A DNA stretch of 64,000 bases from Escherichia coli (GTDB taxonomy: Bacteria; Pseudomonadota; Gammaproteobacteria; Enterobacterales; Enterobacteriaceae), in the NCBI RefSeq assembly GCF_050320075.1, contig NZ_CP190018.1; one strand, written 5' to 3'. Both the position numbers and the translations under genes were made by a program. Below, in pieces: positions 2 through 64,000 of this stretch. The first letter of the stretch is position 1; each line of letters begins with the position of its first letter. The notes beneath the pieces were generated by a model that did not search any database, was not told where the DNA came from, and saw only the letters and a program-made list of their open reading frames with translations.

Positions 2-733
2 GATGTGAGCGTCATCTACCCTGACCGTATCCGCCGCCGTCCGCCCGGAACGACCTCCAAAGGTCTTGGAGCGCATACCGACTCCGGGGCACTGGAACGC
101 TGGCTGCTTCCAGCGTATCAGCGCGTTTTCGCCAACGTCTTTAATGGCAATCTGGCGCAATATGATCCCTGGCATGCGGCACATCGTACGGAAGTTGAAG
201 AGTACACGGTGGACAACACCACCAAATGTTCCGTGTTTCGGACATTCCAGGGCTGGACAGCGCTCTCTGATATGCTGCCTGGTCAGGGGCTGCTGCACGT
301 CGTGCCCATTCCTGAAGCCATGGCGTACGTACTGTTACGTCCGCTGCTTGATGATGTGCCGGAGGATGAACTGTGCGGCGTAGCGCCCGGAAGAGTATTG
401 CCGGTATCAGAGCAATGGCATCCACTGTTGATTGAGGCGTTAACCAGCATTCCAAAACTCGAAGCCGGAGACTCCGTCTGGTGGCACTGCGACGTCATCC
501 ATTCCGTTGCCCCCGTTGAAAATCAACAGGGCTGGGGCAACGTGATGTACATTCCTGCGGCACCGATGTGCGAGAAAAATCTTGCCTACGCGCACAAGGT
601 GAAGGCCGCACTGGAAAAAGGCGCATCGCCGGGCGACTTCCCGCGCGAGGACTATGAAACAAACTGGGAAGGACGCTTTACGCTTGCCGACCTCAACATT
701 CACGGTAAGCGAGCGTTGGGAATCGACAGCTGA
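2..733 (+). CDS. ybiU: YbiU-like DUF1479 protein, C-terminal part (N-terminus lies upstream of the window)
   Basis: ORF-track frame open from window edge to stop at 733; translation carries HTDSG...WWHCDVIH motifs that I associate with the DUF1479 / 2OG-oxygenase-like family; position next to ybiT. Confidence 0.7.
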   Translation, partial: DVSVIYPDRIRRRPPGTTSKGLGAHTDSGALERWLLPAYQRVFANVFNGNLAQYDPWHAAHRTEVEEYTVDNTTKCSVFRTFQGWTALSDMLPGQGLLHVVPIPEAMAYVLLRPLLDDVPEDELCGVAPGRVLPVSEQWHPLLIEALTSIPKLEAGDSVWWHCDVIHSVAPVENQQGWGNVMYIPAAPMCEKNLAYAHKVKAALEKGASPGDFPREDYETNWEGRFTLADLNIHGKRALGIDS

Positions 734-1803
734 GTGTCGTACAGCCCTTCCCGTTCCACGGCGGTGTTCCCTTTTCCTGGGCGAACCCGCCGCACTGACT
801 CCCGCACCGCCAATCGTCCGTGCAGCAGCAGCGAGCCCACCGGAGCATCCGGGCGAATCAGCCGCTGTTGCAACATTTGCACCGCTTCATTGCCTAGCTC
901 ATCGCGTGGCACATGCACAGCCGTCAGGGGAACATCCTCGATTGCCGCAAGGTTAAAGCCGTCGATACTCATCACCGAGACATCCTGTGGTACGCGCAGA
1001 CCACGACGATGTAGCGCATTTACCGTTCCCGCCGCCATAAAATCCCCGCCGACCAGAAACGCCGTCGGCAACGTCTTGCCATTGGCGGCATCCAGCCACG
1101 CTCCGACCTTTTCTTCCGCTTCTTTAGCGCTAAAACTGCTGATATTCAGCAAATGACGGTCATGGTGAAAGGCCAGATTATGCTGACGCCATGATTCTTT
1201 AATCCCTGCAAACCGCTGCTCCATAGTGTAGCGGCGCAGGCACATCACATTCATCACCTCCCGGTGACCCATTTCAAACAGATAGCGGGCGGCGAACGCG
1301 CCAATTAACCGATGGTCCGGCGCAATCGCCGGGAGGCGCATTCGTTCATCACGGCAGTTGATCAGCACACAAGGCTTAGCGAGATCGGCGGCCAGATCAT
1401 GGATGTGCGGATCGTCAATCCCCAGCAGGATCGCCGCCTGCGTATCTGCTTCATTCATTCGCGAGAGAAATAGCGCGGGATCGCTGTCAAACTCCTCCAG
1501 CGCGCAGTAACGCAGCCGCACTTCATGCGGCGATAACGCTTTGCTGATGCTCTGGATCACACGGTAATAAAAGATATCAGATCGTTGGTCAAAAGCGCGT
1601 TGCGGCGCGAAAATAATCAGGTTGTTCAGCAACATACGACCTGCTGCCATGCCATCCATCACGCCCAACTCACGCGCGCAGGCCAGCACCTGTTCGCGAG
1701 CGCGTGCACTGGTATTCGCTTTGCCAGCCAGCACCCGCGAAACCGTACTCGGCGATAGCCCGGTACGTGCGGCGATATCGGCGATTTTCAGCTTCTTGTC
1801 CAT
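700..1803 (-). CDS. LacI-family transcriptional regulator (367 aa from ATG at 1803)
   Basis: N-terminal HTH (MDKKLKIADIAARTGLSPSTVSRVLAG) and periplasmic-binding-protein-like sugar-binding body; ATG checked at 1801-1803 (cat on + strand); 34-bp convergent overlap with ybiU. Confidence 0.8.
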   Translation of the reverse strand: MDKKLKIADIAARTGLSPSTVSRVLAGKANTSARAREQVLACARELGVMDGMAAGRMLLNNLIIFAPQRAFDQRSDIFYYRVIQSISKALSPHEVRLRYCALEEFDSDPALFLSRMNEADTQAAILLGIDDPHIHDLAADLAKPCVLINCRDERMRLPAIAPDHRLIGAFAARYLFEMGHREVMNVMCLRRYTMEQRFAGIKESWRQHNLAFHHDRHLLNISSFSAKEAEEKVGAWLDAANGKTLPTAFLVGGDFMAAGTVNALHRRGLRVPQDVSVMSIDGFNLAAIEDVPLTAVHVPRDELGNEAVQMLQQRLIRPDAPVGSLLLHGRLAVRESVRRVRPGKGNTAVEREGLYDTQLSIPNARLP

Positions 1804-2097
1804 TTTGTGATCTGCCTCTAATTCGGAAATGACAGAATTTTCATGAGCAAAAAAGCCCATTCTGTCTGGCATTAAATCCATTTCAGTAATGTATATCAGT
1901 CACTCATGGAAAAACGTGCACAAAACCCGCTTTCTTTCGCTTTTAGGGTCTCTTACTGTGAATTGGTAGAACAACTTCCATACAAAAATAATGGAAAAAC
2001 GAACAATAAAGACTTTATTTATCAAAAAGTTAAAAGTGGTGTGACAACTCCATTCTGACGTTGCCACACAAACCCTATACCATTCTGTGGAGTGCAT

Positions 2098-3399
2098 ATG
2101 AGTCAGGGTATCAATAACGATATGACTGCCAGTAAACCGCGCCATATCGTCAAAAATCTGCGTTGGTGGATACTGGTCCTTTTTTTGCTCGGTGTTACTG
2201 TCAACTACATCACGCGTAACTCGCTGGGTATTCTCGCCCCCGAACTGAAAAGCAACCTGGGGATTACCACCGAACAATATTCCTGGATTGTAGGTGCTTT
2301 CCAGCTCGCCTATACCCTATTCCAACCGTTGTGTGGATGGCTGATTGACGTCATTGGCCTCAAACTGGGCTTTATGATCTGCGCGGGACTGTGGGCGCTG
2401 GCCTGTCTGATGCATGCGGGGGCGGGAAACTGGGTACATCTGGCGCTGTTGCGCTTCTTTATGGGCGGTGCGGAAGCCGCGGCAACCCCAGCAAACGCCA
2501 AAACCATCGGTGAATGGTTTCCAAAATCAGAACGCCCGATCGCCGCAGGCTGGGCAGGCGTCGGTTTTTCCATCGGTGCCATGCTGGCCCCACCGATTAT
2601 CTATTTTGCCCACGCTTCATTCGGCTGGCAGGGTGCATTTATGTTCACTGGCATCCTGGCGATGCTGTGGGTGGTGCTGTGGTGGGCGTTCTATCACAAC
2701 CCGGATAAGCATCCGAACCTCAGCAAAGCCGAGCTGGACTTTATCCGCCAGGATAACGAAGCGCCCCCGATTAAATTACCCTTTCTGACCGCACTGAAAA
2801 CCGTGGGCAAAAATAAACGCTTTTACGGTATCGCTATCCCGGCCTTTATGGCAGAACCGGCGTGGGCGGTGATGAGTTTCTGGGTGCCGCTATACCTGTC
2901 CAAAACCTATGGCATGGACCTGAAGCAGATCGCATTATTCGCCTGGTTGCCGTTCCTCGCCGCTGATCTTGGCAGTATTGCCAGCGGCTATCTGACCAAA
3001 CTTTACACCCGCCTGTTTGGGCTGAGTCGTGTGAACTCCGTTGTCGCATCATCGGTCAGTGGCGCATTCTTGATGGTTTCGCTGGCGGTGATGGCCTTTA
3101 CCAATAACCCGTATATCGCCATCGTCCTTATTTCCATCGGCGGCTTCGGTCACCAGATCATCTCCTGCATGCTGAGCGCACTGGTGGTGGAATCCTTCGA
3201 CAAAGGTCAGATGGCCACTGTTAACGGCATGCGCGGTTCTGCCGCGTGGATCGCAAGTTTCCTGTTCTCCCTGATTATCGGGGTTACCGCTGACAAAATC
3301 GGCTTTAACCCCCTGTTTATCGCCATGGGCTTCTTTGACCTGATTGGCGCTTTCTTCCTGGTCACCTTTATTGCTGAACGTCGCGCAAAACGCGCCTGA
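2098..3399 (+). CDS. MFS transporter, anion:cation symporter (ExuT/GudP-like) family
   Basis: ORF track 2092-3399; multiple TM segments and ExuT-like sequence pattern; ATG at 2098 preceded by GGAG (ORF track starts 2 codons earlier at GTG). Confidence 0.75.
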   Translation: MSQGINNDMTASKPRHIVKNLRWWILVLFLLGVTVNYITRNSLGILAPELKSNLGITTEQYSWIVGAFQLAYTLFQPLCGWLIDVIGLKLGFMICAGLWALACLMHAGAGNWVHLALLRFFMGGAEAAATPANAKTIGEWFPKSERPIAAGWAGVGFSIGAMLAPPIIYFAHASFGWQGAFMFTGILAMLWVVLWWAFYHNPDKHPNLSKAELDFIRQDNEAPPIKLPFLTALKTVGKNKRFYGIAIPAFMAEPAWAVMSFWVPLYLSKTYGMDLKQIALFAWLPFLAADLGSIASGYLTKLYTRLFGLSRVNSVVASSVSGAFLMVSLAVMAFTNNPYIAIVLISIGGFGHQIISCMLSALVVESFDKGQMATVNGMRGSAAWIASFLFSLIIGVTADKIGFNPLFIAMGFFDLIGAFFLVTFIAERRAKRA

Positions 3400-3413
3400 G
3401 AGTGGATGTAAAC

Positions 3414-5777
3414 ATGAAAACGCTGAAAAACTGGACCCTGCACAAACAGTCTGCCCACCACGTTGAACTGCTGGTCGATGGCCAGCATATCCTGTGCCTG
3501 TACGTGCTGGAAGAAAATCTGTTCCGCGTGCTGTTAAAACGCAAAGGCGAGCTGGCGCTGGATCGCACCTGGAGCATTGCTCCGGCGCAGGATGTGCCAT
3601 GGGAAGGGCGCAGCCGCGAAGATCTCAGCGGCTTTAGCCTGCCCGCGTGGACATTGATCCAGCACGACGACACCGTGGTTATCGCCACCGAGTCACTGCG
3701 TGCCACCGTTCACCAGCCGCTGTGGCTGGAGTGGCACTATCGTAACAACGAAGGCGAATGGCTGCCGTTGGTGAATGACCGCCCGACCAGCGCTTATCTG
3801 CTGAATGCCCACGGCGATGGCGTGGCACACTATCAGAGCCGTCGTAAAGATGAACGCTTTTATGGCCTCGGAGATAAAGCCGGCGACCTGCAACGCAACG
3901 GTAAACGTTACGAGATGCGTAACCTCGACGCGATGGGCTACAACGCCGTTAGTACTGACCCGCTGTACAAACACATTCCATTCACCATCACCCGCCGCGA
4001 TGACATTAGCTTCGGCCTGTTTTATGACAACCTCAGCAGCTGCTGGCTGGATCTGGGCAACGAGATCGACAACTACCACACCGCCTATCGCCGCTGGCAG
4101 GCGGAAGCGGGTGATATCGACTACTACCTGTTTACCGGCGAACGCGTACTTGATATCACCAAAGCCTTCGTACGCCTGACCGGCAAAACCCTGTTCGGAC
4201 CGAAATGGAGCCTGGGCTACAGCGGTTCAACTATGCACTACACCGATGCGCCGGACGCACAAAATCAGTTGATGAACTTTATCCGCCTGTGTGAAGAACA
4301 TGCGATTCCCTGCGATTCGTTCCAGCTCTCTTCCGGTTATACCTCAATTAACGGCAAGCGCTATGTGTTCAACTGGAATTACGACAAAGTGCCGCAGCCG
4401 AAAGTGATGAGCCAGGCATTTCACAATGCTGGTTTGCACCTGGCCGCCAATATCAAGCCGTGCCTGTTGCAGGATCACCCACGCTATAACGAAGTGGCAG
4501 AAAGAGGACTGTTCATCCGTGATTCAGAAACAGATGAACCAGAACGTTCCAGCTTCTGGGATGACGAAGGTTCTAACCTCGACTTTACTAATCCGCAGAC
4601 CATCCAGTGGTGGCAGGAAGGCGTGACCACACAGCTTCTGGAGATGGGTATCGACTCCACCTGGAACGACAACAACGAATTCGAAGTATGGGACGGTGAA
4701 GCACGCTGTCACGGCTTTGGTCAGACGATCGCGATCAAACATATTCGCCCGGTGATGCCACTGCTGATGATGCGAGCCTCGATGGAAGCCCAGCAACGTT
4801 TCGCTCCGGAAAAACGTCCGTACTTGATCTCCCGCTCCGGCTGCGCGGGAATGCAGCGCTATGTGCAGACCTGGAGCGGCGATAACCGCACTAGCTGGGA
4901 CACTCTGCGCTACAACACCCGCATGGGTCTGGGGATGAGCCTCTCCGGGCTGTATAACCTCGGTCACGACGTCGGCGGTTTCTCCGGTGATAAGCCGGAC
5001 CCGGAACTGTTTGTACGCTGGGTACAAAACGGCGTGATGCATCCGCGCTTTACGATTCACTCGTGGAACGATGACCATACCGTAAACGAACCGTGGATGT
5101 ATCCGGGCGTCACTCCGGCGATCCGCAGCGCTATTGAGTTGCGCTATCGCCTGCTGCCCTACTTTTATACCCTGATGTGGCAGGCATACGCCGATGATGA
5201 ACCAATGCTGCGTCCGACTTTCCTTGACCACGAGCACGACGTTCAGACTTTTGAAGAGTGTGATGACTTCCTGCTTGGTCGCGATATTTTGGTTGCCAGC
5301 GTCGTAGAGCAAGGCGAGCGCCAGCGCCGTGTATGGCTGCCAGATAACGAAACTGGCTGGTACGATTTCTACAACGGCGAATGGTTCAGTGGCGGTCAGT
5401 GGATCACCCTCGACGCACCGCTGGAGAAACTGCCGCTGATGGTGCGTGCCGGGGCTGGTCTACCGCTCAGCAAACGCATCACCTATGTGAGCGCAGAACA
5501 AGACGATACCCGCGAACTGAAACTGTTCCCGCTGAAAGGTGTGGGCACAACGTCCGGCCTGCTGTTTGAAGACGATGGCGAAAGCTGGGGCTACCAAACT
5601 GGTAATGCGCTTTGGGTGGAATGGGAAATGGTTTGCGATGGGGCGACCATCAACCTGAAAGTCAACGCGCGCGGGGATTATCGACCTGCATGGAGTGCAC
5701 TGAAAGTGTCATTACCAGTGGAAGAAAAACGCACGCTGCTGGTCAATGGTGTTGAAGGGAGTGAATGGATGCGTTAA
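3414..5777 (+). CDS. Glycoside hydrolase family 31 (alpha-glucosidase / alpha-xylosidase-like)
   Basis: ORF track 3402-5777; GH31 nucleophile-region motif MGIDSTWNDNNEF; ATG at 3414 (GTG at 3402 possible); starts 15 bp after MFS stop. Confidence 0.8.
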   Translation: MKTLKNWTLHKQSAHHVELLVDGQHILCLYVLEENLFRVLLKRKGELALDRTWSIAPAQDVPWEGRSREDLSGFSLPAWTLIQHDDTVVIATESLRATVHQPLWLEWHYRNNEGEWLPLVNDRPTSAYLLNAHGDGVAHYQSRRKDERFYGLGDKAGDLQRNGKRYEMRNLDAMGYNAVSTDPLYKHIPFTITRRDDISFGLFYDNLSSCWLDLGNEIDNYHTAYRRWQAEAGDIDYYLFTGERVLDITKAFVRLTGKTLFGPKWSLGYSGSTMHYTDAPDAQNQLMNFIRLCEEHAIPCDSFQLSSGYTSINGKRYVFNWNYDKVPQPKVMSQAFHNAGLHLAANIKPCLLQDHPRYNEVAERGLFIRDSETDEPERSSFWDDEGSNLDFTNPQTIQWWQEGVTTQLLEMGIDSTWNDNNEFEVWDGEARCHGFGQTIAIKHIRPVMPLLMMRASMEAQQRFAPEKRPYLISRSGCAGMQRYVQTWSGDNRTSWDTLRYNTRMGLGMSLSGLYNLGHDVGGFSGDKPDPELFVRWVQNGVMHPRFTIHSWNDDHTVNEPWMYPGVTPAIRSAIELRYRLLPYFYTLMWQAYADDEPMLRPTFLDHEHDVQTFEECDDFLLGRDILVASVVEQGERQRRVWLPDNETGWYDFYNGEWFSGGQWITLDAPLEKLPLMVRAGAGLPLSKRITYVSAEQDDTRELKLFPLKGVGTTSGLLFEDDGESWGYQTGNALWVEWEMVCDGATINLKVNARGDYRPAWSALKVSLPVEEKRTLLVNGVEGSEWMR

Positions 5778-27070: not shown

Positions 27071-28033
<963 letters not shown>

Positions 28034-30381: not shown

Positions 30382-30663
30382 TTATTCCGCTGGCGGCCAT
30401 TGCAGAGCGGTATGTAAAACACGCAGTACCGAGAGCGTATCGCCCTCCACTTGATAGACAAGCACATAATGCGGCCTGACAACGGCTTCATGTGTACCAG
30501 CGACTCGTCCGGCCCGGTACATCTCCGGGCGTTCACAGGCCTGTTCCGCAATGGCTTCAAATTGATTATCAAGGGCTATTGCCGCTAGCGGATTATCTTT
30601 ACTGATGTATTCCATGATTTGCTCCCTGTCAGACAGGGACATTGGCTTCCATTCCAGACGCAT
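30382..30663 (-). CDS. ParE/RelE-superfamily toxin (type II TA)
   Basis: 93 aa; ParE-like pattern (...YISKDNPLAA..., ...VLVYQVEGDTLSVLRVLH...); start shares one nucleotide with upstream ORF stop (TAATG). Confidence 0.7.
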   Translation of the reverse strand: MRLEWKPMSLSDREQIMEYISKDNPLAAIALDNQFEAIAEQACERPEMYRAGRVAGTHEAVVRPHYVLVYQVEGDTLSVLRVLHTALQWPPAE

Positions 30664-31103
30664 TAATCCCCCTTCAGCAAGGCTTTTTTACGGGCAGCAA
30701 ATAGACTTTTGGCCTCTTCATGAGAGAGTGCCGGGCGTGGATCGTCAATGGCGGCCTGCACCTGCTCTCGAAACCAGGCATCATACGCGGCAGCTTCATG
30801 AGCTCGTTTTAATGCCTCAGCCCTGTCTGGTCGGGTCGTTTTCTTCTGACCGTCCGGGTCGTAATTAGAGGCGTCGACTTCAAACCGGGCAATACCAACA
30901 TCTTTCAGGTAGTTGACAACCGTTTCCAGCCGTTTGAACAGGCGGATTTGCCGACTGCGTTGTGCTGCAAGAGGCCGTTCAGTGTGGCCGTATTTCACGG
31001 TCAACGACCAGCCTCCCTGGGTGCCAATAACGTGTGCTGCATCCACTACGCCAGATTCAACCAGTTTATGTAAGGTTGAGTGATCGATCGTTTCTGGTGC
31101 CAT
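30663..31103 (-). CDS. Putative antitoxin, C-terminal PaaA2/ParD-like region with ~90-aa N-terminal extension
   Basis: 146 aa; C-terminal AAYDAWFREQVQAAIDDPRPALSHEEAKSLFAARKKAL resembles PaaA2-type antitoxins as I recall them; translationally coupled to the toxin. Confidence 0.55.
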   Translation of the reverse strand: MAPETIDHSTLHKLVESGVVDAAHVIGTQGGWSLTVKYGHTERPLAAQRSRQIRLFKRLETVVNYLKDVGIARFEVDASNYDPDGQKKTTRPDRAEALKRAHEAAAYDAWFREQVQAAIDDPRPALSHEEAKSLFAARKKALLKGD

Positions 31104-45138: not shown

Positions 45139-46128
45139 TTAGCCGCCAATGTACGATAAGTTTTGCGTAATACCGGTGTTGTTTTGATGCAGGAAATGGG
45201 TCTGTTTCTTCTCCCGCAGCGCCGCTGAAATACGCGCTTCCAGCGCCTGTTGCTGGGTATCGTCTTCCAGCAGATCGCGCAGGTTAACGCCGCCTTCACC
45301 AAACAGGCAGAGATGGAGTTTACCAATGGAGGAAACGCGCAGGCGGTTGCAAGTGGCGCAGAAGTCTTTTTCATACGGCATGATAAGGCCAATCTCTCCG
45401 GCGTAATCCGGATGACAAAAGACTTGCGCGGGACCGTCGCTGCGTTGACGTAATTGGTGGATCCAGCCGCGACGCAGTAGCTCGTCACGCAGAACCTGAC
45501 CAGAGATGTGATGCTTACGGAAGAGCTCGCTGCCCTCACCCGTTTCCATCAATTCGATGAAACGCAGCTGGATAGGGCGATGCTGGATCCAGTTCAGAAA
45601 GGTGTCGAGCTGATGATGATTAACATCACGCATCAGCACGGTATTGACTTTGACCTTTTCAAAACCGGCCTCAAATGCGGCATCGATCCCTGCCATGACC
45701 TGGTTGAATTTATCCTGCCCGGTAATGGCATGAAACTGGTGAGCGTCAAGGCTATCAACGCTGACGTTGATGCCAGTAAGTCCAGCATCGCGCCAGTTCG
45801 CCACATCGCGTTCCAGACGGTAACCATTGGTGGTGACCGCAATCTGGCGGATAGCGTCGTTTTCCCGCACAGCGGCGATGATATCGGTAAAGTCGCGGCG
45901 TAAAGACGGCTCACCACCTGTCAGACGGACTTTTTCGGTGCCAAGACTGGCGAAGGCGCGCGTAACCCGGCGAATTTCATCGACGGTAAGAAAGCCTTTA
46001 TTGGTGACGCCGCTCGGTTTGTAGCCATCCGGCAGGCAGTAGGTGCAACGAAAGTTACACACATCGGTAATCGACAGGCGCAAGTAGTAAAACTTACGCG
46101 CAAATGCATCAGTCAGTTGTGAAGCCAT
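45139..46128 (-). CDS. moaA: GTP 3',8-cyclase MoaA (radical SAM)
   Basis: 329 aa from ATG 46128; CNFRCTYC radical-SAM cluster motif. Confidence 0.95.
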
Positions 46129-46134
46129 GTACAC

Positions 46135-46290
46135 CTTTCCAGATACGGGAGGCGAAGTCATTTCTTCCTTCGCCCTGGTGGCAATCTTTACGAGCATTGT
46201 CACGGCCAAAGCACCGTATCAGTTGACCCAGGTGCAGAGGCTAGAGTGTTTAGTGGTTAAGCCGATACTAGCGTGTAAATGAGATTTTTA
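46135..46290 (-). ncRNA. moaA leader, expected molybdenum-cofactor (Moco) riboswitch
   Basis: Placed by established knowledge that the E. coli moaABCDE leader carries the Moco RNA motif; conserved motif not verified by alignment here. Confidence 0.45.
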
Positions 46291-55223: not shown

Positions 55224-55700
55224 ATGAAACTCATCAGTAATGATTTACGCGATGGCGATAAGCTGCCGCATCGTCATGTCTTTAACGGCATGGGTTACGA
55301 TGGCGATAATATTTCACCGCATCTGGCGTGGGATGATGTTCCTGTGGGAACGAAAAGTTTTGTTGTCACCTGCTACGACCCGGATGCGCCAACTGGCTCC
55401 GGCTGGTGGCACTGGGTAGTTGTTAATTTACCCGCGGATACCCGCGTATTACCGCAAGGGTTTGGCTCTGGTCTGGTAGCAATGCCAGACGGCGTTTTGC
55501 AGACGCGTACCGACTTTGGTAAAACCGGATACGATGGCGCAGCGCCGCCGAAAGGCGAAACCCATCGCTACATTTTTACCGTTCACGCGCTGGATGTAGA
55601 ACGTATTGATGTCGATGAAGGTGCCAGCGGCGCGATGGTCGGGTTTAACGTTCATTTTCACTCTCTGGCGAGAGCCTCGATTACTGCGATGTTTAGTTAA
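55224..55700 (+). CDS. ybhB: PEBP-family protein YbhB
   Basis: 158-aa translation; last chromosomal gene before the att site. Confidence 0.85.
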   Translation: MKLISNDLRDGDKLPHRHVFNGMGYDGDNISPHLAWDDVPVGTKSFVVTCYDPDAPTGSGWWHWVVVNLPADTRVLPQGFGSGLVAMPDGVLQTRTDFGKTGYDGAAPPKGETHRYIFTVHALDVERIDVDEGASGAMVGFNVHFHSLARASITAMFS

Positions 55701-55789
55701 TCACTCTGCCAGATGGCGCAATGCCATCTGGTATCACTTAAAGGTATTAAAAACAACTTTTTGTCTTTTTACCTTCCCGTTTCGCTCAA

Positions 55790-55804
55790 GTTAGTATAAA
55801 AAAG
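55790..55804. other. Lambda-type att core (attR junction): ttagtataaaaaagc
   Basis: Reverse complement of the 15-bp lambda core GCTTTTTTATACTAA, flanked on the ybhB side by bacterial-arm sequence cgctcaag. Confidence 0.85.
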
Positions 55805-55947
55805 CTGAACGAGAAACGTAAAATGATATAAATATCAATATATTAAATTAGATTTTGCATAAAAAACAGACTACATAATACTGTAAAACACAACATATGC
55901 AGTCACTATGAATCAACTACTTAGATGGTATTAGTGACCTGTAACAG
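55805..55947. promoter_or_regulatory. Lambda attP P-arm (Int arm-type, IHF, Xis, Fis site region)
   Basis: ~140 bp matching, as far as I can recall it, the reverse complement of the lambda P arm (...cgtaaaatgatataaatatcaatatattaaattagattttgcataaaaaacagactacataatactgtaaaacac...ctgtaacaga). Confidence 0.75.
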
Positions 55948-55950
55948 AGC

Positions 55951-55990
55951 ATTAGCGCAAGGTGATTTTTGTCTTCTTGCGCTAATTTTT
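55951..55990 (+). terminator. sib / tI-like intrinsic terminator distal to att
   Basis: ttagcgcaag ... cttgcgctaa hairpin followed by tttttt on + strand, in the position of lambda sib/tI. Confidence 0.6.
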
Positions 55991-56510
55991 TGTCATCAAA
56001 CCTGTCGCACTCCAGAGAAGCACAAAGCCTCGCAATCCAGTGCAAAGCTTTGTGTGCCACCCACTACGGCCCGCATAACCAGTAAGAAGATAGCAGTGAT
56101 GTCAAACGACGCAGCAGTCTTCTTTTCTTTCACACTTTCCCCCACCCAGCATACATACCTTTCTGCCACAGCTGAAATGAATGTCTATTATGAGCAAGGA
56201 GAGGAAATTCGTAATTGTCATCATCAATGGCGATTTGCTGGTACTATCTGTGTTAAGTAATAGGAAAACAAGTAACTGGAGAAAGATTTGATTTACACAC
56301 TATTATAGCAGTTAATAGTTTAAGCTATTGACACTTTAACTATTTTGCATAAAGTTAAACATAACAACCCCATAAATTGATAATGCAAGAGAGTACTGAA
56401 CTAAGTATTTTAGCTCTACCATATTGCCCAGGCAGTATAATATATGATACATTAAAAAATTAGATTTAATTTACTTAAACATCCTAATCACACTAAGAAT
56501 GAAGAAATAA

Positions 56511-57389
56511 ATGCTGTTTAAATATTGTCCTATTAATGAGTATTCAATTAAATCTCTAGTGGAAAACAAACTATATCTTAATCATCTCAACATGATGAAT
56601 GACAGTGCTGAAGGTTTTTGTAAGATAATAAGTGGTTTCCCAGATTATAATGAAAAAACTGAGAGATATGATTTGATAATAAAAACATGGTGTGGAGAGT
56701 CTGGCTGGCTACCTTCTGAATATGAATATAACGAATATATTGATTCAATGAGAGAACTGGAACCAAATGTCCCGCAATTGCTGGACTCTGCAAGGATATC
56801 ATGCTTTACGAATACGGCGTTAAACCCTACAATGTGGGCTCATTATGCTAACAACAGAACAGGTATATGTATAGAATTCGATCAAGACAAAATAAGAGAA
56901 CTAGAGGATATCTATATCTTTGACGTCAAATATAAAGATCGCCCTCCGACTATTGATACTGCAGTACTAACATTAATAGCTGATCAGGTGAACTATAATC
57001 ATGATGCAATTTATGATGATTATCAAGAAAAGTTCAAACATCTTTATGAACAAGCATTTGACGAGGGAAGAAATTTGCTTTTGGAAATTTACAATGGAAT
57101 ATTGGCAACTAAATCTCAAGAATGGTCTTATGAACAAGAAAAACGGCTAATATATATTTTATCCTTCTCACAAGAAGACAAATTGGCAAAAAAATATAAA
57201 ACTGGCATAAACATATCACTCCCTGAAGGATGCATTAAAAGTGTTATCCTAGGTGAGAAGACAAGTGAGCATGATAAAAAACTTATAGTTTCAGCTATAA
57301 AAAAACATTCTAAACACATTAAGTTGAAGAGAGCTACAATAACACAAGGCGAATATTTATTATCTATTCGTGATGAAGTTTTTAGCTGA
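56511..57389 (+). CDS. DUF2971-like protein of unknown function (prophage cargo)
   Basis: 292 aa; N-terminal MLFKY...L.ENKLYL...NDSAEG and central SCFTNTALNPTMWAHYANNRTGICIEF match what I recall as DUF2971 hallmarks; visibly AT-rich by eye. Confidence 0.6.
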   Translation: MLFKYCPINEYSIKSLVENKLYLNHLNMMNDSAEGFCKIISGFPDYNEKTERYDLIIKTWCGESGWLPSEYEYNEYIDSMRELEPNVPQLLDSARISCFTNTALNPTMWAHYANNRTGICIEFDQDKIRELEDIYIFDVKYKDRPPTIDTAVLTLIADQVNYNHDAIYDDYQEKFKHLYEQAFDEGRNLLLEIYNGILATKSQEWSYEQEKRLIYILSFSQEDKLAKKYKTGINISLPEGCIKSVILGEKTSEHDKKLIVSAIKKHSKHIKLKRATITQGEYLLSIRDEVFS

Positions 57390-57451
57390 TGGTATTATAA
57401 TCGAACAGATATTTTCTCCTAAGCGTTGCATTTATCCCACGGTAACATATT

Positions 57452-57490
57452 CATACTCAAATATCCTGCGACATGGAAGATTTGAGTATG
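57452..57490 (+). terminator. Hairpin (11-bp stem, 17-nt loop) downstream of the DUF2971-like ORF
   Basis: catactcaaat ... atttgagtatg inverted repeat 63 bp after stop; weak T tract follows. Confidence 0.4.
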
Positions 57491-57678
57491 GTTGTTCTTC
57501 ATGAGCGAAAAGCAGATGTTCGCGCTAAGGTATAATCAATTGGTTGTTAAATAGTTTAAACACAAGCAATGACTAATAAAACAATGCCACAAACCTTATT
57601 ATTTCTAAACTAGCATTTAGCTTTCAGACAATTTATTGATTGTTAATACATATTTTTAATATTTAATTATCATTTATT

Positions 57679-57689
57679 CCCCCCCCCCC
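57679..57689. repeat. Homopolymeric C11 tract
   Basis: 11 consecutive C at 57679-57689; a second C6 run at 57776-57781. Confidence 0.9.
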
Positions 57690-57882
57690 TCATGCTTATC
57701 AAATACTTCACAACAACGGAATTTTAATCCACATTTGTTATCTGTCTCTATCAGATTCATCCATACCCCCCTCCATTATTATTTAATTTCCAGATAAAAA
57801 TCTTCATCCTGTTATACATATAAAAAAGTGCAATATTTAAATAATGATAACAAATTATTGATTTTGCTCACATAAATTTTAT

Positions 57883-57911
57883 TGACAAGATGATAAGCTG
57901 ATATCTACACA
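57883..57911 (+). promoter_or_regulatory. Candidate sigma70 promoter for the zinc-ribbon ORF
   Basis: TTGACA at 57883-57888, 17-bp spacer, weak -10 tacaca; SD aagagg 5 nt before ATG 57935. Confidence 0.4.
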
Positions 57912-57934
57912 TTGTATTTTCTCAAGAGGAATTT

Positions 57935-58348
57935 ATGGCTGACATTGTCACTGGTTTGACCGCACTCAAAACCGCCTTTGATTTAGCAAAAGATATAAAA
58001 AATGCCACTGGCGCATACAATGATGCAGAAATGAGGCTTAAGTTTAGTGAGCTTTATAGCGCGCTATCTGAAGCCAAAATAGAACTGGCTGATACACAGC
58101 TAGAAATGTATGAACTAAAGCTGAAGATCGAAGAGTTGCAAGCTAAGCTTGATGCATCGGACGAGCTTGAATATAGGGAAAACGTATACTGGAGGGCCTC
58201 ACCTATCAATGGCAAACCAAACGGTCCTTTTTGCCCAAGATGTTATGAAAGTTCAGAGAAGAAGCTATCTTCAATGAGTCAAGTAACGGGGCATGCAACT
58301 ATTGCTGGAAAATACAAATGTAATACTTGTAACGCCTACGTTAGATAA
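57935..58348 (+). CDS. Small coiled-coil protein with C-terminal CxxC...CxxC zinc ribbon (prophage cargo)
   Basis: 137 aa; heptad-like LKFSELYSALSEAKIELADTQLEMYELKLKIEELQAKL; CPRCY ... CNTCNAY; good SD. Confidence 0.6.
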   Translation: MADIVTGLTALKTAFDLAKDIKNATGAYNDAEMRLKFSELYSALSEAKIELADTQLEMYELKLKIEELQAKLDASDELEYRENVYWRASPINGKPNGPFCPRCYESSEKKLSSMSQVTGHATIAGKYKCNTCNAYVR

Positions 58349-58684
58349 AAAGCCGTTATGGGGCTGGGACGGAGGCTCAAATCCTCTCGTGCAAAAATTC
58401 AGCTAAAACTTTTGTTCAGGAGACTCTGAAAGATACCAAGAAGTCTGCTGACGAGTGGTTTATTTACTAATTAGCACGTAAAATCTATTATGGCTGGAAA
58501 TCATTCAATACTCGTACTATCGAAAGTTCGCCAGCCGACAGCAAAACGCTATTGCATGGCAGGGATTGCAGGCCTCTCGATATTCGGTGCTAAGGATGTA
58601 TCAACACGGTTCAGCAGAACCCGATGCGTCTTCAAAACCGCAGCAACGATATCTCTTCCTCCGTTCCATTTACAGCCACCTTTT

Positions 58685-58993
58685 TCACCCTCGATTAACC
58701 AACAACCAGACCAGAAGACACGCTACCACCGGCACAGCAAAATCCATCAGGCTTGCCATATCCCACGCGCGTGGGTCAAAACCGCCCCACCACGGCATAT
58801 TCATTCGCTTGCCATGCCCGAACATTTCGATCCAGCGATATTCTGCCTGGGTGTGTTCACGCGCAATGAAGAACGTACAACCGGCTATCGCCCCGTAAGC
58901 CCAGTTCCCGGTAAAAAGACCAATCAGTAGCTGCGCAGCCACAGCACAAAGCGCATGAAGGAAAGGTGTTATATCCATTTTCATCCCACCCAA
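58685..58993 (-). CDS. Small predicted membrane protein (prophage, unknown function)
   Basis: 102 aa with two hydrophobic segments; several alternative Met starts; lies just downstream of the tail-fibre genes. Confidence 0.5.
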   Translation of the reverse strand: MGGMKMDITPFLHALCAVAAQLLIGLFTGNWAYGAIAGCTFFIAREHTQAEYRWIEMFGHGKRMNMPWWGGFDPRAWDMASLMDFAVPVVACLLVWLLVNRG

Positions 58994-59020
58994 TAAAACG
59001 GGGCGCTCGGCCCCTTAATA

Positions 59021-60061
59021 TTATTTAGACGCAAGCGCCGCATCAATTGCAGATAATCTTTGTCTTAATTCTGCGTTTTCTTCTTCCAGTGCTGTTATTC
59101 TGTCGTCTGACTCTCTGGCTACCTGAACAAGCAAGCCAGTAACACCAGAATAATCTACTGTGTAATAACGTTCACCTTCTTCACCTTCCGATCCGCTCGC
59201 ACCGTCCTGATATTTCATTACGGAACCTACAACTTCTGGGATTGCTTCCAGAGCTTCCTGTGCAATGACACCAGCATAGGGCATACCGTTTTCTTTAAGC
59301 GTGTATGTATAGCCGTTCATTTTACGGATGCGGTCGGTTGCATTATCGATCACCTGAATGTTGTCTTTCAGATCCCGGTCGGAATGCTGGTTAAATGCGG
59401 TGGCATGACATGCACCATTAACGCTTAACATATAGGTGTTATCGGTATTTTTCTGCGCATAGAACATATAAGCGCCACCATCAACACCGACTTCATAAAC
59501 AACAGGACGGCTGGAGTTGCCCCACAATTGAGCAGTAACACCAGCATAAGCGGTTCCCTGTGTGTTTAATGTCATGGTTGACCCATGATTGGCATATTTG
59601 ATCTGTAATGTGTCGGTGTAATCAAATTTAATAAGCGCGTTACTTCCACGCTTGCTGTATGACATAAGGCAGTTACCCATTTTGAGGTATCCGCTGTCAC
59701 CGGGAAAAATCATCGTACCGCCATAAAGGTTGGTAAAGTCCCAGCAAATGTTTGTCCCGTTATCGTTCAGGTTAAGGCGCGCCATTGCGTTACCTGGACT
59801 GTCTATCCATTTTTTGAGGTATAGTTCGCAATATGCATCCTCAACACCTGCCGTCCTGTGAGTTGAGCGGAGTTTTCTCCCAAATATAGCTCCGCTAGTT
59901 GGCAATACCTGCTGATACCATGAAGCAGACCAGTCACCAACGGTTTCATCTTTGCTGTCTACATATGATTTTGTTGCGTAGCTTCCTTGATCGTTTTTTA
60001 ATTTGCTAACGTCGGATTTTAGCGTTTTGATGTCATCAGGAATTACTGTCGATGTAGCCAT
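59021..60061 (-). CDS. Tail fibre / spike-like protein with C-terminal intramolecular chaperone (peptidase S74-like) domain
   Basis: 346 aa; C-terminal SDRDLKDNIQVIDNATDRIRKMNGYTYTLKENGMPYAGVIAQEALEAIPEVV plus terminal coiled coil (ITALEEENAELRQRLSAIDAAL). Confidence 0.65.
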   Translation of the reverse strand: MATSTVIPDDIKTLKSDVSKLKNDQGSYATKSYVDSKDETVGDWSASWYQQVLPTSGAIFGRKLRSTHRTAGVEDAYCELYLKKWIDSPGNAMARLNLNDNGTNICWDFTNLYGGTMIFPGDSGYLKMGNCLMSYSKRGSNALIKFDYTDTLQIKYANHGSTMTLNTQGTAYAGVTAQLWGNSSRPVVYEVGVDGGAYMFYAQKNTDNTYMLSVNGACHATAFNQHSDRDLKDNIQVIDNATDRIRKMNGYTYTLKENGMPYAGVIAQEALEAIPEVVGSVMKYQDGASGSEGEEGERYYTVDYSGVTGLLVQVARESDDRITALEEENAELRQRLSAIDAALASK

Positions 60062-60070
60062 TTTTCTTCC

Positions 60071-60352
60071 TCACATCCAGCCACGAAGTTGATGCTCAAC
60101 AGCAACCACGTATTCATCGAATATTGACGGTGTTTTCACATCATTAATGATGCGCACGTTTACAAAATATCCGTCTTCCTTAACACATACCGGTTCGCCA
60201 TCTTCATTCAGTTCTCCGGTTTCTTTGTACACGTTACCTATCACGTCAATAAGAATATCATCCTGCATCGACTCATCATCATAATAGCCAGTGCTATCCA
60301 TAAAGGCCGAAAAATCGGCCCTGTCGGCAAATTTAAGTGTTAAATCTTTCAT
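60071..60352 (-). CDS. Small acidic protein translationally coupled to stf (possible fibre assembly/accessory protein)
   Basis: 93 aa; ATG overlaps stf stop (ATGA); no family recognised. Confidence 0.5.
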   Translation of the reverse strand: MKDLTLKFADRADFSAFMDSTGYYDDESMQDDILIDVIGNVYKETGELNEDGEPVCVKEDGYFVNVRIINDVKTPSIFDEYVVAVEHQLRGWM

Positions 60353-62748
60353 TTAATACTCTCCCCCATTTGCGCATCAGTTAATTCTTTATGCCAGAGA
60401 CGAAGATTTCTCAAATGGCCGAATAGATGACGTGTCCCTGATGTGGCTTGACCTCCTATTCTAATAAAGGTCCGCGTTTTTACGCCCGTCCATTCCGTTT
60501 CAATGGTTTTAGTAGCCTCACCGTTAGAAACTACTCGTTTAGTACCGTCAGAATAAATATTAAAACCACCAATGAATTTTCGAACATCCGTTCGACCAGT
60601 AAACAAACTAGAAACGTAACTACTTGTCGACGCTTTATAAGTTTGCATATAAAGCTGACCGTAATATCTCTCGGTTGTGTTAAAAGCGTATGTGATTGAC
60701 TCAATAGGCGGCACACCAGAAAAATCAAAAATACGCGGTGCTACATTAGGGGGAATATCGCCCCAATTCCTGTTAACCTCGACCAAACAAGTAAGCGGTC
60801 TGTTATAAATGTTGTTTTCGGTCGGGATCGTAACCATATCACTCGCACGAGTCGCCGCCGTCGCTCCTGATATAATAAAAGATGATACACAAGGCCCATC
60901 TTCTACTTGTGGGGTGGCCAGATAAATATAGTCACCAGATACGGTTGCCCCGCTCTGCTTAGGAGAATACTGTATCTGAGAGCCTATTTTTAACTCCCCA
61001 TCAATTGCCTGAATTGTTGCCTCTGCAAAAATCCATCCGGTAGCTTCGTCCTTTCTGACTCTCGCTGTAATCCTTGAGGCAGCACCGCCTGTCATATTAA
61101 TTTCAAGCGTTTGTGTATCAATATACGCATCACCAAGAAAAGTTGTTGCGCTACCGTCATATTTATCAAACCGGATACGCAACCTTACCTGCAGTTCTGT
61201 TTTAAAACGACATGAGGTTGTCACGTATTTATTATCGCCTGAGACATCAACTGACTTTGTTGCAGCAATTGATGCCATATTAATGGCTGAGGTTTGCCCA
61301 ATCAGAGAATCGTTACAGACAAACTTTCCATAGGTAAAACCAAAACTATCCGTCCCGGTTTCGGGAACATCCATATTTGACGATCGCCCCCAACTGGCAG
61401 GGCTTTCCGAATTGAGCATGTAGTTCGCTCTTTGCCCCTCAATAAGCAGGCCATCACGTTCAAATCGTGGCTCGTCAATGGCAGCCTCTGTCAGCACACC
61501 AGATTTATTAATATAGGTTGCTTTCGATGCGCGTTTAAACTTTACAACCTTATCGCCAGGCATCGTTATTTCATCATCACCAATAACAATCTTTTTATAT
61601 GACGGCGAAAACCCCGTAATCATATCCAGTGAATCGTTAAACGGTATCCACACATCAGGCAACGGCTGCAAAACTTGTTTATACGGCTCCGCTGCCTGGC
61701 TTGCATACTCTCTGGCTGCGTCTTCACTTGCTTTAGCTGCTGTCTGGCTTGCTGCCGATGCTTGCGCCGAGTTCGCCGCTGTAGTCTCGCTCGCCTTTGC
61801 GTTGTCTTCACTGGTTTTTGCAGCTCTTTGACTGTTGGCTGATGCCGTGGCAGAAGCAGCCGCCGCGCTTGCAGAACCAGCTGCGGCACTCTCGCTTTGG
61901 GCCGCTGCATCCTGACTGTTTTTCGCCGCAGTTTCGCTGGCTTTGGCATTCGTTTCGCTGGTCTTCGCTGCAGTCTCGCTTGTCTTTGCGTTGGTTTCAC
62001 TGGTTTTTGCAGCTCTTTGACTGTTGGCTGATGCCGTGGCAGAAGTAGCCGCCGCACTTGCAGAACTGGCTGCCGCTCTCTCGCTTTGGGCTGCTGCATC
62101 CTGACTGTTTTTTGCTGCGGTAGCGGAGTTTGCTGCGGCACTCTGACTCGATTCTGCAGCCACCTCGCTATTTTTCGCATTAGTTTCGCTGGTCTTTGAA
62201 GCTGTCTCACTCGCTTTTGAGTTGTTTTCTGATTTTTTGGCTGCAGTCGCGGAGTTTGCCGATGCAGTCTGTGAGGCCGCTGCCGCCTGTGCGCTGTTAG
62301 CTGCATTCGTTTCTGAGGTTTTCGCCGCGTTCTTCGATGATGCCGCTGCAGTTTCGGATGTCTTTGCCGCCGCTGCGCTCTGAGAGGCGGCTTCAGCGTT
62401 GCGTGCCGCTTCTTCCACCATTTCCTGAAAACGGCGCAATGCCTCCGGCATGACATCATCTTCCGTCATGGCACCGAGAAAATCATTCAGCGTCCCCGGA
62501 CTGGAACCTTCATAGACGGTAATGGTCCCGGCATGTGAAGGCGGAAAACCTTCAACCAGCAGGATGACGCTGTACTGGCCATACTCAACGTCCATACTGT
62601 AACGCCCGGCTTCATCAGGATTTTCAGAGGCCACCGTGTTCACCAGTACCGTGGTGCTGTTACGCTTTGCCTTCAGTTGAATAGTGCAGTTCTGTATTGG
62701 TTTTCCCGCACCATCTTTCAGCACACCTGAGATTTTTACTGCTGCCAT
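60349..62748 (-). CDS. stf: Side tail fibre protein Stf-like (lambda Stf N-terminus, Ala/Ser/Thr-rich repeat shaft, LamG-like distal domain)
   Basis: N-terminus MAAVKISGVLKDGAGKPIQNCTIQLKAKRNSTTV... matches lambda Stf as I recall it; C-terminus ...FGHLRNLRLWHKELTDAQ resembles LamG-domain ends; ATG at 62748. Confidence 0.8.
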   Translation of the reverse strand: MAAVKISGVLKDGAGKPIQNCTIQLKAKRNSTTVLVNTVASENPDEAGRYSMDVEYGQYSVILLVEGFPPSHAGTITVYEGSSPGTLNDFLGAMTEDDVMPEALRRFQEMVEEAARNAEAASQSAAAAKTSETAAASSKNAAKTSETNAANSAQAAAASQTASANSATAAKKSENNSKASETASKTSETNAKNSEVAAESSQSAAANSATAAKNSQDAAAQSERAAASSASAAATSATASANSQRAAKTSETNAKTSETAAKTSETNAKASETAAKNSQDAAAQSESAAAGSASAAAASATASANSQRAAKTSEDNAKASETTAANSAQASAASQTAAKASEDAAREYASQAAEPYKQVLQPLPDVWIPFNDSLDMITGFSPSYKKIVIGDDEITMPGDKVVKFKRASKATYINKSGVLTEAAIDEPRFERDGLLIEGQRANYMLNSESPASWGRSSNMDVPETGTDSFGFTYGKFVCNDSLIGQTSAINMASIAATKSVDVSGDNKYVTTSCRFKTELQVRLRIRFDKYDGSATTFLGDAYIDTQTLEINMTGGAASRITARVRKDEATGWIFAEATIQAIDGELKIGSQIQYSPKQSGATVSGDYIYLATPQVEDGPCVSSFIISGATAATRASDMVTIPTENNIYNRPLTCLVEVNRNWGDIPPNVAPRIFDFSGVPPIESITYAFNTTERYYGQLYMQTYKASTSSYVSSLFTGRTDVRKFIGGFNIYSDGTKRVVSNGEATKTIETEWTGVKTRTFIRIGGQATSGTRHLFGHLRNLRLWHKELTDAQMGESIK
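61809..62122. repeat. Tandem direct repeat (period 189 bp) inside stf
   Basis: cactggtttttgcagctctttgactgttggctgatgccgtggcagaag... occurs at 61809 and again at 61998. Confidence 0.8.
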
Positions 62749-62812
62749 ATCCACTCCACAAAAAAGCCCGCCTGAACCGGCGGGCTGTCATAACACTGTG
62801 TTACCTGGCTAA

Positions 62813-63412
62813 TCAGAATTTATAACCGACACCCACGATGAAACCGTCAGTGTGCCAGTCACCACTGCCGGAGCCTTCATAAGCAAGGTCAATGGCCACG
62901 GATTCGGTCGGGTTAAACTGCACGCCAGCCCCCCACGCCAGAGACGTGTCGCTGTGGCGACCGTCATCACTTCCGTTCAGCACATCGTACGTTTTCCCCT
63001 TATTGTCAGTTACGCGGAGATAATCCCCGGAGAAGGTCGACACACGGCTGTAAGCCACGCCCGCCATCGCATACGCGCTGAACCATTCATTCACGCGTAC
63101 AGACGGCCCCGCCATCATGCTGAACCAGCGGTTACGCACTGAATCTTCATGCCAGCGGGTATCGCTGTAACGGGTAATCTGGCGATTCTTGTCTCCTGCA
63201 TAACTGAATGACGTCACCAGCCCCAGCGTGTCCGTAAATTCATAACGGTATTTCACGTTAATGCCCTTCAGGTCATCACTGCCTGGCATATCAGTATGGG
63301 CCTGAAGATACCCGGCGCTTAGTGTGGACTGATGCTCTGCTGCGCTCGCTGGCGTACCAACGGCAACCAGCCAGACTACTGCGGACAGAATAACAGCACA
63401 TAATTTACGCAT
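62813..63412 (-). CDS. lom: Outer membrane protein Lom (Ail/Lom family)
   Basis: 199 aa, near-identical to lambda Lom as I recall it (MRKL.A.ILSA...[11 protein letters not shown]...GVGYKF). Confidence 0.85.
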
Positions 63413-63479: not shown

Positions 63480-64000
63480 TCAGCTGATACTGATGCCTGC
63501 GGTGGCTTTCTTCATCACCACAACCAGCAAATCGCTGATACTTGCTGTGGGATACCAGTCATTTACCAGCCATGCTGACACCGAAAACTCCAGCGTCATG
63601 TGACCGTGACCGGCAGGCATATCAACAACGCCACTGTAAATCAGCGTATTATCCAGCGCGGTACGGTTATAAATTTCAGCACCGTTTTTCCGCACTATCA
63701 GACGGCATGAGGAGTAAATATCAGTATGCTCTCTCTCATGTTTAGCGCCGCTGAATGCCACCGCCGGAATAACAATCTGCCGGTCAAACGGCTGATCGTC
63801 ATAAACCCTGACGGTAATGGTCCCTGATGGCCACCGTTCCGGTGCACGGGAGTCACGGGGGAAAGCTTTGCCCACTGTTTTAACGAGATCGCCTTCAATC
63901 TGGTTCGCGGACAGTTTTCCCAGAACCCGGCAATTCTCGTTAATCGTGACGTTGTTGAGCGTCCCGGAGTTCGCATTCACGTTACCGCTGATATCGGCAT
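63480..64000 (-). CDS. J: Tail tip host-specificity protein J, C-terminal part (5' end beyond window)
   Basis: - strand frame open from window end to stop at 63480; position upstream of lom as in lambda. Confidence 0.7.

Follow-up and report, generated by a model that had tools for sequence, protein, structure and literature searches.

What is the lambda-like block that lies beside the bio genes of this Escherichia coli chromosome, and what has come in with it? Near the end of the 64,000-nucleotide stretch that we analyzed (contig NZ_CP190018.1; hereafter the window), a noncoding segment next to ybhB resembles the attachment site of phage lambda, and a sequence-only reading had proposed that it belongs to a mosaic lambdoid prophage that kept the integration module of lambda and exchanged its cargo and fiber regions. 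Our comparisons leave little doubt that 55772-55993 represents the right attachment site (attR, in the order P-O-B') of a lambda-type mosaic prophage, which lambda Int would have placed at the canonical attB, beside bio and flanked by ybhC and ybhB, with the tI/sib terminator just inside. Lambda attR, the P arm, sib/tI, and lambdoid mosaicism are already known from textbooks, and 44-45 complete RefSeq genomes already contain annotated copies of this prophage. The practical value of the locus is that of a clean landmark, with the prophage boundary fixed to the base, and the DUF2971 gene that adjoins it merits consideration for a defense assay.

The core and the P arm carry the identification. 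Positions 55791-55805 (minus strand) hold the reverse complement of the 15-bp att core of lambda (GCTTTTTTATACTAA) and equal lambda 27724-27738; on the plus strand the surroundings read ccttcccgtttcgctcaag TTAGTATAAAAAAGC tgaacgagaaacg, the middle 15-mer being the core. This is the single exact match in the window, where shuffled sequences lead one to expect 0.01 matches with one mismatch allowed. From the core outward, an ungapped comparison with lambda (J02459; window position x corresponds to lambda 83529-x) gave 278 identical bases out of 278 (55791-56068 against 27461-27738), a run that spans the core, the P arm, and tI/sib and ends at the first mismatches, 56069 and 56072. All 153 bp of the P arm are identical to lambda 27571-27723, including the arm-type Int sites P2 ("int 2," lambda 27615-27634; window 55895-55914) and P1 ("int 1," lambda 27583-27602; window 55927-55946). 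Between these arm sites and the core lies, presumably, the region for Xis, Fis, and IHF site H1, which we place from established knowledge of lambda attP.

The earlier claim that the lambda core and P arm are conserved is borne out by this alignment. The extent assigned to the likeness needs revision; the match is real, but it stretches for about 420 bp and not about 200 bp. When 50,697 phage records were searched with BLAST, lambda matched 55787-56100 at 99.0% identity (E = 3e-155), as did HK629, HK630, O276, imm21 and imm434 hybrids, and DE3, and at lower identity the lambda alignment extended to 424 nt (95.8%; 55787-56209 against lambda 27319-27742). Past approximately 56209-56215 it collapses, which marks the mosaic boundary. 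An open reading frame (ORF) of 111 amino acids at 55925-56260 is unlikely to be a gene, given its overlap with P1 and tI, the lack of any family match, and a frameshift relative to lambda.

Across the core from the P arm, the window has the B' arm of the host in place of the P' arm of lambda, and then ybhB, bioA, and bioBFCD. By standard convention, the order P-O-B' beside bio makes this junction attR. Joining both host flanks restores attB, and strain CFSAN061763 has this site uninterrupted at 100% identity. Across 5426 complete E. coli genomes, attB is intact in 3487 and split in the remaining ~1940, while P-arm-like DNA occurs in 1999, so that roughly a third of complete genomes are occupied at this site. 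The partner end of the prophage can be seen in E. coli Ec-U3 (NZ_CM192149.1), which matches the whole window at 99.993-99.997% identity and carries a prophage of ~49.8 kb running from ybhC to ybhB. Its ybhC end has the order B-O-P' (attL) with a P' arm identical to that of lambda at 100 of 100 positions, and its Int is full length (353 of 356 residues identical to lambda Int), with xis next to it. The search for attL and int at the other prophage end, which the earlier account had left outside the window, was thus successful in Ec-U3. When attP was rebuilt from the P arm and core of the window and the P' arm of Ec-U3, all 270 bp were identical to lambda.

The terminator provides a further signature. 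The plus strand (int-sense in lambda) forms a long hairpin at 55944-55993 (free energy, -24.3 kcal/mol; z = -5.9 versus shuffles) with an inner stem that pairs 55951-55962 with 55975-55986 and a T run at 55986-55991. An outer stem, ACAGAG/UUUUGU, is possible only on RNA that has been read through the T run. The zone is identical to lambda 27470-27582; core, P arm, and hairpin alike are base for base those of lambda, at the same site between ybhC and ybhB by bio. Identity and a stable fold together uphold the suggestion of a hairpin with a T run in the position of sib/tI. A simple terminator scan left tI unflagged because its stem is interrupted, and it was seen only on folding. In the rebuilt attP, the hairpin lies ~150-200 bp past the core on the int-sense strand and is downstream of int only in the circular genome; in the Ec-U3 prophage, int sits at the attL end, ~49.8 kb from tI/sib.

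Diverged occupants of the same attB show which part of this region is held constant. The prophages of O157:H7 (493/89) and strain 55989 and the remnant in ATCC 8739 have the common core, the B' arm, and a P2-P1-tI/sib block that is almost invariant, whereas the P arm varies in its core-proximal half (~70-88% identical). The near-invariance of the P2-P1-tI/sib block supports it as a conserved functional unit. In O157:H7 and ATCC 8739, similarity to lambda ends right past the T run, and in 55989 it continues for ~60 bp more, through a second hairpin. The T run of tI/sib is the exact end of the conserved unit, then, in two of the three diverged relatives that we aligned. That second stable hairpin (56020-56056; GCACAAAGC...GCTTTGTGT) lies ~30 nt downstream of tI; it is kept in lambda, 55989, and CI5 and is missing in O157:H7 and ATCC 8739, where homology has already stopped. 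Strain CI5 (NZ_CP011018) holds a block by ibsA/yegL (L010 ~4055-4338) that matches lambda P2-P1-tI/sib and the following b-region DNA at ~90%. The CI5 block has no lambda core; with arm sites of the lambda type but another core and another integration site, it recalls the relationship between lambda and HK022.

If the site works as it does in lambda, Int would occupy the core together with P1 and P2 on a P arm bent by IHF, Xis, and Fis, a scheme that has been shown for lambda and is carried over here on the strength of sequence identity. Together, attR and attL would form an excisive intasome, in which strands would be exchanged inside the 15-bp core to yield attP and attB. In the circular genome, the hairpin would lie downstream of int across attP and would terminate pI transcripts (tI), while RNA that reads through tI would form the longer sib stem, be cut by RNase III, and leave the int mRNA destabilized. 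In the prophage, where the hairpin is apart from int, Int could be made together with Xis for excision. In lambda, terminated pI transcripts are without the outer stem, and it is the read-through pL transcripts that serve as the RNase III substrate and destabilize int mRNA. Retroregulation of int by sib has been described (PMC5300877); a literature search returned nothing that combined sib, retroregulation, and RNase III.

The rest of the prophage, followed in Ec-U3, alternates between lambda-like and unrelated DNA. Identity to lambda is 98.9% over attL-int-xis, 97.4% over exo-bet-gam-kil, 93.7% over the 3' part of O through P and ren, 95.2% over Rz, 96-97% from cos-Nu1 through most of J, 83% over lom and the start of stf, and 95.8% over the attR-sib block. 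There is no lambda DNA match for the immunity region (cI-rex-N), nin, S and R, the C terminus of J, most of stf, or the b region. The nin region resembles that of DLP12 (emrE, ybcK, ybcN, ninE, ybcO, and rusA), as do the lysis genes. Phage lambda itself (Lambdavirus lambda) was considered as the identity of the prophage and set aside, given that immunity, nin, lysis, and b region are unmatched, in favor of a lambda-like mosaic. The mosaic has lambda-like modules for integration, recombination, replication (P-ren), and head and tail, along with different immunity, nin, and lysis regions, a different J C terminus, a fiber set common to phages with a Rac-type integrase, and low-GC cargo in the b region. 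Int modules have been repeatedly shuffled among lambdoid phages (PMC12315714). The proposal of a mosaic lambdoid prophage with the lambda integration module and exchanged cargo and fibers is therefore supported in each of its parts: att and int are those of lambda, the cargo is unmatched there, and the fibers are common to other phages.

The immunity region differs from that of lambda in layout, with the N gene absent and a different repressor region. In Ec-U3, the order is a cI-like repressor gene, a SIR2-family gene (where lambda has rexAB), ~590 bp of noncoding DNA, and kil. The region is of the XRE/helix-turn-helix (HTH)/YdaT type, as in the Bievrevirus 4A7 (L005 5517-6303 and 8018-9618, in coordinates of the Ec-U3 prophage locus). 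Around a TTGACT box at L005 ~6035-5985, GCTATTG/CAATAGC repeats resemble a pL operator region. We compared the prophage with isolated mosaic lambda-like E. coli phages, namely, PhiR70_1, 4A7, 1W/3W, and IdasGreatGrand. The closest was PhiR70_1 (PV340577), at 96% identity over 64-73% of the prophage, including the integrase end. Phage 4A7 shares the N-less layout of cI-like, cro-like, and YdaT-like genes and, from the repressor gene to kil, a slot with variable cargo; it differs in that its int-xis end is unmatched (the match runs from query position 2655) and other genes replace the SIR2 gene. The SIR2-family gene itself encodes 533 amino acids (L005 6304-7905), lies directly downstream of the cI-like repressor gene where 4A7 holds unrelated genes, and matches the PADLOC candidate PDC-S25 (E = 3e-235) and, less strongly, Thoeris ThsA.

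Three other accounts of the locus have to be set against an attR of a lambda-type prophage inserted by lambda Int. One, that the core match is a chance similarity in AT-rich intergenic DNA and no att site at all, can draw on the base composition of the region (guanine-plus-cytosine [GC] content, 0.37-0.40) and on nothing else; we give it no credence in the face of the 0.01 matches expected for the core alone, 278 consecutive identical bases, and E = 3e-155. Perfect identity over those 278 bp invites another suspicion, namely, that the stretch derives from laboratory lambda or DE3, from a construct, or from contamination of the assembly. The only phage record to match the full query, ybhB included, is DN1 (MF374379.1), a lambda-bio specialized transducing phage that derives from DE3, contains ybhB-bioABFCD, and came from a culture of BL21(DE3). 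Yet the 8.8-kb junction recurs at 100% identity in 44 independent complete genomes of human, chicken, gull, cat, and river-water origin, the flanking cargo, fibers, and immunity region are not those of lambda, and strains of the BL21(DE3) type reach only 96% over the extended block, all of which makes a laboratory origin extremely improbable. DN1 is a by-product of aberrant excision at the same attR. Its record has an "antisense RNA" feature over the equivalent of 55996-56157 that is left unexplained there and is without family support, because Rfam gave nothing at att/sib at the gathering threshold (whole window) or at E <= 1 (55600-56600), save a chance mir-184 match (E = 0.55).

More serious is the view that this is a genuine lambda attR in a grounded prophage that can no longer be excised or induced, with att and sib persisting as relics by recent ancestry. 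Several observations speak for this view. In the Ec-U3 prophage, an IS200/IS605 transposase gene (tnpA; L005 17325-17783) has been inserted directly after the gene for the Q antiterminator, and the late-regulatory region contains two pseudogenes (L005 13925-14248 and 19949-20673), one of them a C-terminal piece of P22AR and the other an HTH gene with a frameshift; the insertion and the pseudogenes could impair late gene expression. Fragments of DinI and tfa lie in the cargo region. The cargo, at 99% identity or more in all 45 carrier genomes, shows a distribution that would fit vertical descent within a single clone and has no bearing on inducibility. Other points tell against our own reading of the site. 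There is no N-like ORF between kil and the repressor and SIR2 genes; an N-like or put-like antiterminator was sought in the Ec-U3 prophage and none was found, nor did Rfam return a known antiterminator RNA there. With an N-like gene absent, the N-dependent read-through that makes sib an RNase III substrate in lambda is questionable for this phage. The aligned relatives give conservation and no covariation in support of the sib stem, because the stem is invariant among them. Finally, attL, int, and xis lie beyond the window and are attributed to this genome through the near-identical published Ec-U3 genome. Against grounding stand the full-length Int, the presence of xis, perfect attL and attR, the terminase, head, tail, lysis, O/P, and repressor genes, all annotated as intact in Ec-U3, and the isolation of near relatives such as PhiR70_1 as phages. 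On balance, we regard a grounded prophage as unlikely, although far less so than a laboratory origin, and retain the interpretation of a lambda-type attR made by lambda Int.

What, then, does the prophage carry next to this boundary? Beyond ~420 bp from the core, lambda has ea59-ea31-ea47, and this prophage has a DUF2971 gene, a gene for a 137-amino-acid protein, and gene fragments. The expectation that genes beyond attR are unlike those of lambda was correct, in that 56216-58560 has no DNA match in lambda or in any of the 50,697 phage records at megablast sensitivity. GC content falls to 0.28-0.36 from 56216 to ~58000, against flanks of ~0.5. Among the 5426 E. coli genomes, 56216-58400 occurs in 45, always as a single copy and at no less than 99% identity, a pattern that suggests one clone. 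Most of these 45 genomes seem to be one base shorter at the poly-C tract between the two cargo genes, and the C11/C10 difference could reflect either a slippage-prone tract or homopolymer sequencing error.

The DUF2971 protein (292 amino acids) scored 49.6 bits against the Pfam family (cutoff, 22) and matched PADLOC candidate PDC-S31 over residues 1-288 (E = 9.5e-38); PADLOC systems of the PDC class are candidates only. It has an ADP-ribosyltransferase (ART) fold nearest DarT, with a conserved acidic ExE-type motif, and D31, G118, K201, E208, E210, and R212 are invariant in an alignment of 42 DUF2971 sequences. The family is large (4440 representatives at E <= 0.001) and has been described as ART-like and near DarT (PMC12522546). 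In contrast to DarT systems, no antitoxin-like DarG or macrodomain partner adjoins the gene. A lactococcal plasmid DUF2971 protein of 316 amino acids, Aristaios, has reported antiphage activity by abortive infection (PMC11381338); the likeness between Aristaios and the cargo protein is one of shared domain, family, and description, not of aligned sequence. A literature search under the name PDC-S31 gave no result. Homologs with 68-82% identity occur in a Salmonella conjugative element, beside ATPase and methylase genes, and in a CP4-57-like island of Enterobacter, that is, in conjugative or integrative islands and not in prophages. They are without the 137-amino-acid neighbor, and a two-gene system made up of both proteins was accordingly rejected. 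Their solitary occurrence in other islands fits a mobile single-gene cargo, and the DUF2971 gene is a plausible candidate antiphage gene.

The effector loci of lambdoid prophages in O157 are a well-known case of variable cargo at this slot. Variable cargo between tI/sib and the fiber genes is the rule across the genomes that we compared. In O157:H7, the slot holds the type III secretion system effectors NleD, NleH1-1, NleC, and NleB2 (nleB2-nleC-nleH1-nleD), in strain 55989 a diguanylate cyclase, and in PhiR70_1 an AraC-family regulator with IS2 remnants. We put forward tentatively, doubting it somewhat more than we believe it, that the slot from tI/sib to the fiber genes is an exchangeable cargo bay, which here would contain a putative single-gene antiphage ART. 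The ART gene would be driven in the lysogen by a promoter of its own, and tI, turned to the host side, would protect it from transcription that reads through from ybhB. Counting the SIR2 gene (PDC-S25) in the rexAB position as well, the prophage would then have two defense candidates at two classic moron positions.

The fiber module on the far side of the cargo offers an independent view of exchange. The set at 58994-62760 is shared with phages Tritos, PhiR63_1, and HannyBb at ~94% identity over 89% of its length. Both of the phages inspected among these three, Tritos and PhiR63_1, have an integration region that is Rac-like, with a PinR-type recombinase after the fiber set, and, unlike this prophage, no DUF2971 gene. 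In Tritos, a 426-amino-acid integrase and a RecE-type exonuclease (Rac-like) stand in place of lambda att, sib, and int. The same fiber module with two different integration modules is direct evidence of module exchange. The longest fiber protein (801 amino acids) is close to lambda over its first ~125 residues, passes into low-complexity Ala/Ser repeats, and has 58% identity over 292 amino acids to orf-401; the 346-amino-acid fiber protein has an endosialidase-type chaperone domain in place of a need for lambda Tfa. The assertion that the fiber module is unlike that of lambda therefore stands for most of Stf and for the distal fibers but not for Lom or the N-terminal portion of the 801-residue protein. 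The coordinates of these features are collected in the table.

Table. Features of the window at and around attR, with the evidence for each assignment
Feature	Coordinates	Strand	Evidence
ybhB, host gene, kinase-inhibitor homolog, bio-side flank of attB	55224..55700	+	RefSeq annotation of the identical Ec-U3 stretch; ORF list
B' arm of attB, host half-site (reverse complement CTTGAGCGAAACGGGAAGG)	55772..55790	-	Differs from lambda P' arm; same in other E. coli attR junctions; contiguous with ybhC side in empty sites
Common core O, 15 bp (GCTTTTTTATACTAA)	55791..55805	-	Unique exact match; equals lambda 27724-27738
Lambda attP P arm with P2 and P1	55806..55958	-	153/153 to lambda; annotated Int sites identical
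tI terminator/sib retroregulator hairpin	55944..55993	+	Lambda identity; RNA fold; near-invariance in diverged attR regions
Further noncoding lambda b-region DNA, including second hairpin	55994..56215	+	95.8% to lambda up to 56209
AT-rich region upstream of cargo gene; best sigma-70-like site TTGACA-16-TAAAGT at 56328-56355	56216..56510	+	Promoter scan 10/12, consensus match only; GC 0.28-0.31
Cargo gene, 292-amino-acid DUF2971 protein, DarT-like ADP-ribosyltransferase fold (PDC-S31 candidate)	56511..57389	+	
Poly-C tract (C11), spacer between the two cargo genes	57679..57689	+	Only difference from WP5-S18-ESBL-07 (C10) across 2.4 kb
Cargo gene, 137-amino-acid protein, C-terminal CxxC...CxxC motif	57935..58348	+	phrog_1244 E 1e-16; Zn-ribbon Pfam match below cutoff; no PADLOC match
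Decayed remnants: DinI-like fragment 58393-58470 (+), tail-fiber-assembly (tfa) fragment 58549-58635 (-)	58393..58635		RefSeq annotation as pseudogene and fragment in identical Ec-U3 DNA (window = L001 + 35199)
97-amino-acid hypothetical protein, travels with fiber set	58685..58978	-	phrog_1443 E 1e-58; 88-94% DNA identity in 2G7b, 21, Tritos, PhiR63_1
Distal tail-fiber protein, 346 amino acids, endosialidase-type intramolecular chaperone domain	59021..60061	-	Peptidase_S74 E 5e-14; phrog_4563 full length; ~94% DNA to Tritos, PhiR63_1, HannyBb
93-amino-acid fiber-set protein	60071..60352	-	phrog_1361 E 5e-45; same position in Tritos, PhiR63_1
Side tail fiber, Stf-like, ~800 amino acids; N terminus lambda Stf-like, rest not	60349..62754	-	phage_tail_N E 3e-65; phrog_1419 full length
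Lom (Ail/Lom outer-membrane protein)	62813..63412	-	Ail_Lom E 2e-119; 83% DNA to lambda lom/stf start
J tail-tip gene, 3' end, runs off window	63480..64000	-	RefSeq annotation gpJ; C-terminal part diverges from lambda J

Elsewhere in the window, the Ec-U3 chromosomal annotation was mapped by the relation window x = 3081118 - record position. Genes for a glycoside hydrolase of family 31, a major facilitator superfamily transporter, and a LacI-family regulator (700-5777) make up a small accessory sugar-utilization cluster between ybiT and ybiU. According to the same annotation, a pair comprising a PaaA2-family antitoxin and a RelE/ParE-family toxin (30382-31103, minus strand) lies between rhlE and dinG. 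The only Rfam family to reach its gathering score in the window is a molybdenum cofactor riboswitch (RF01055, 103 bits) at 46116-46260 on the minus strand, upstream of moaA.

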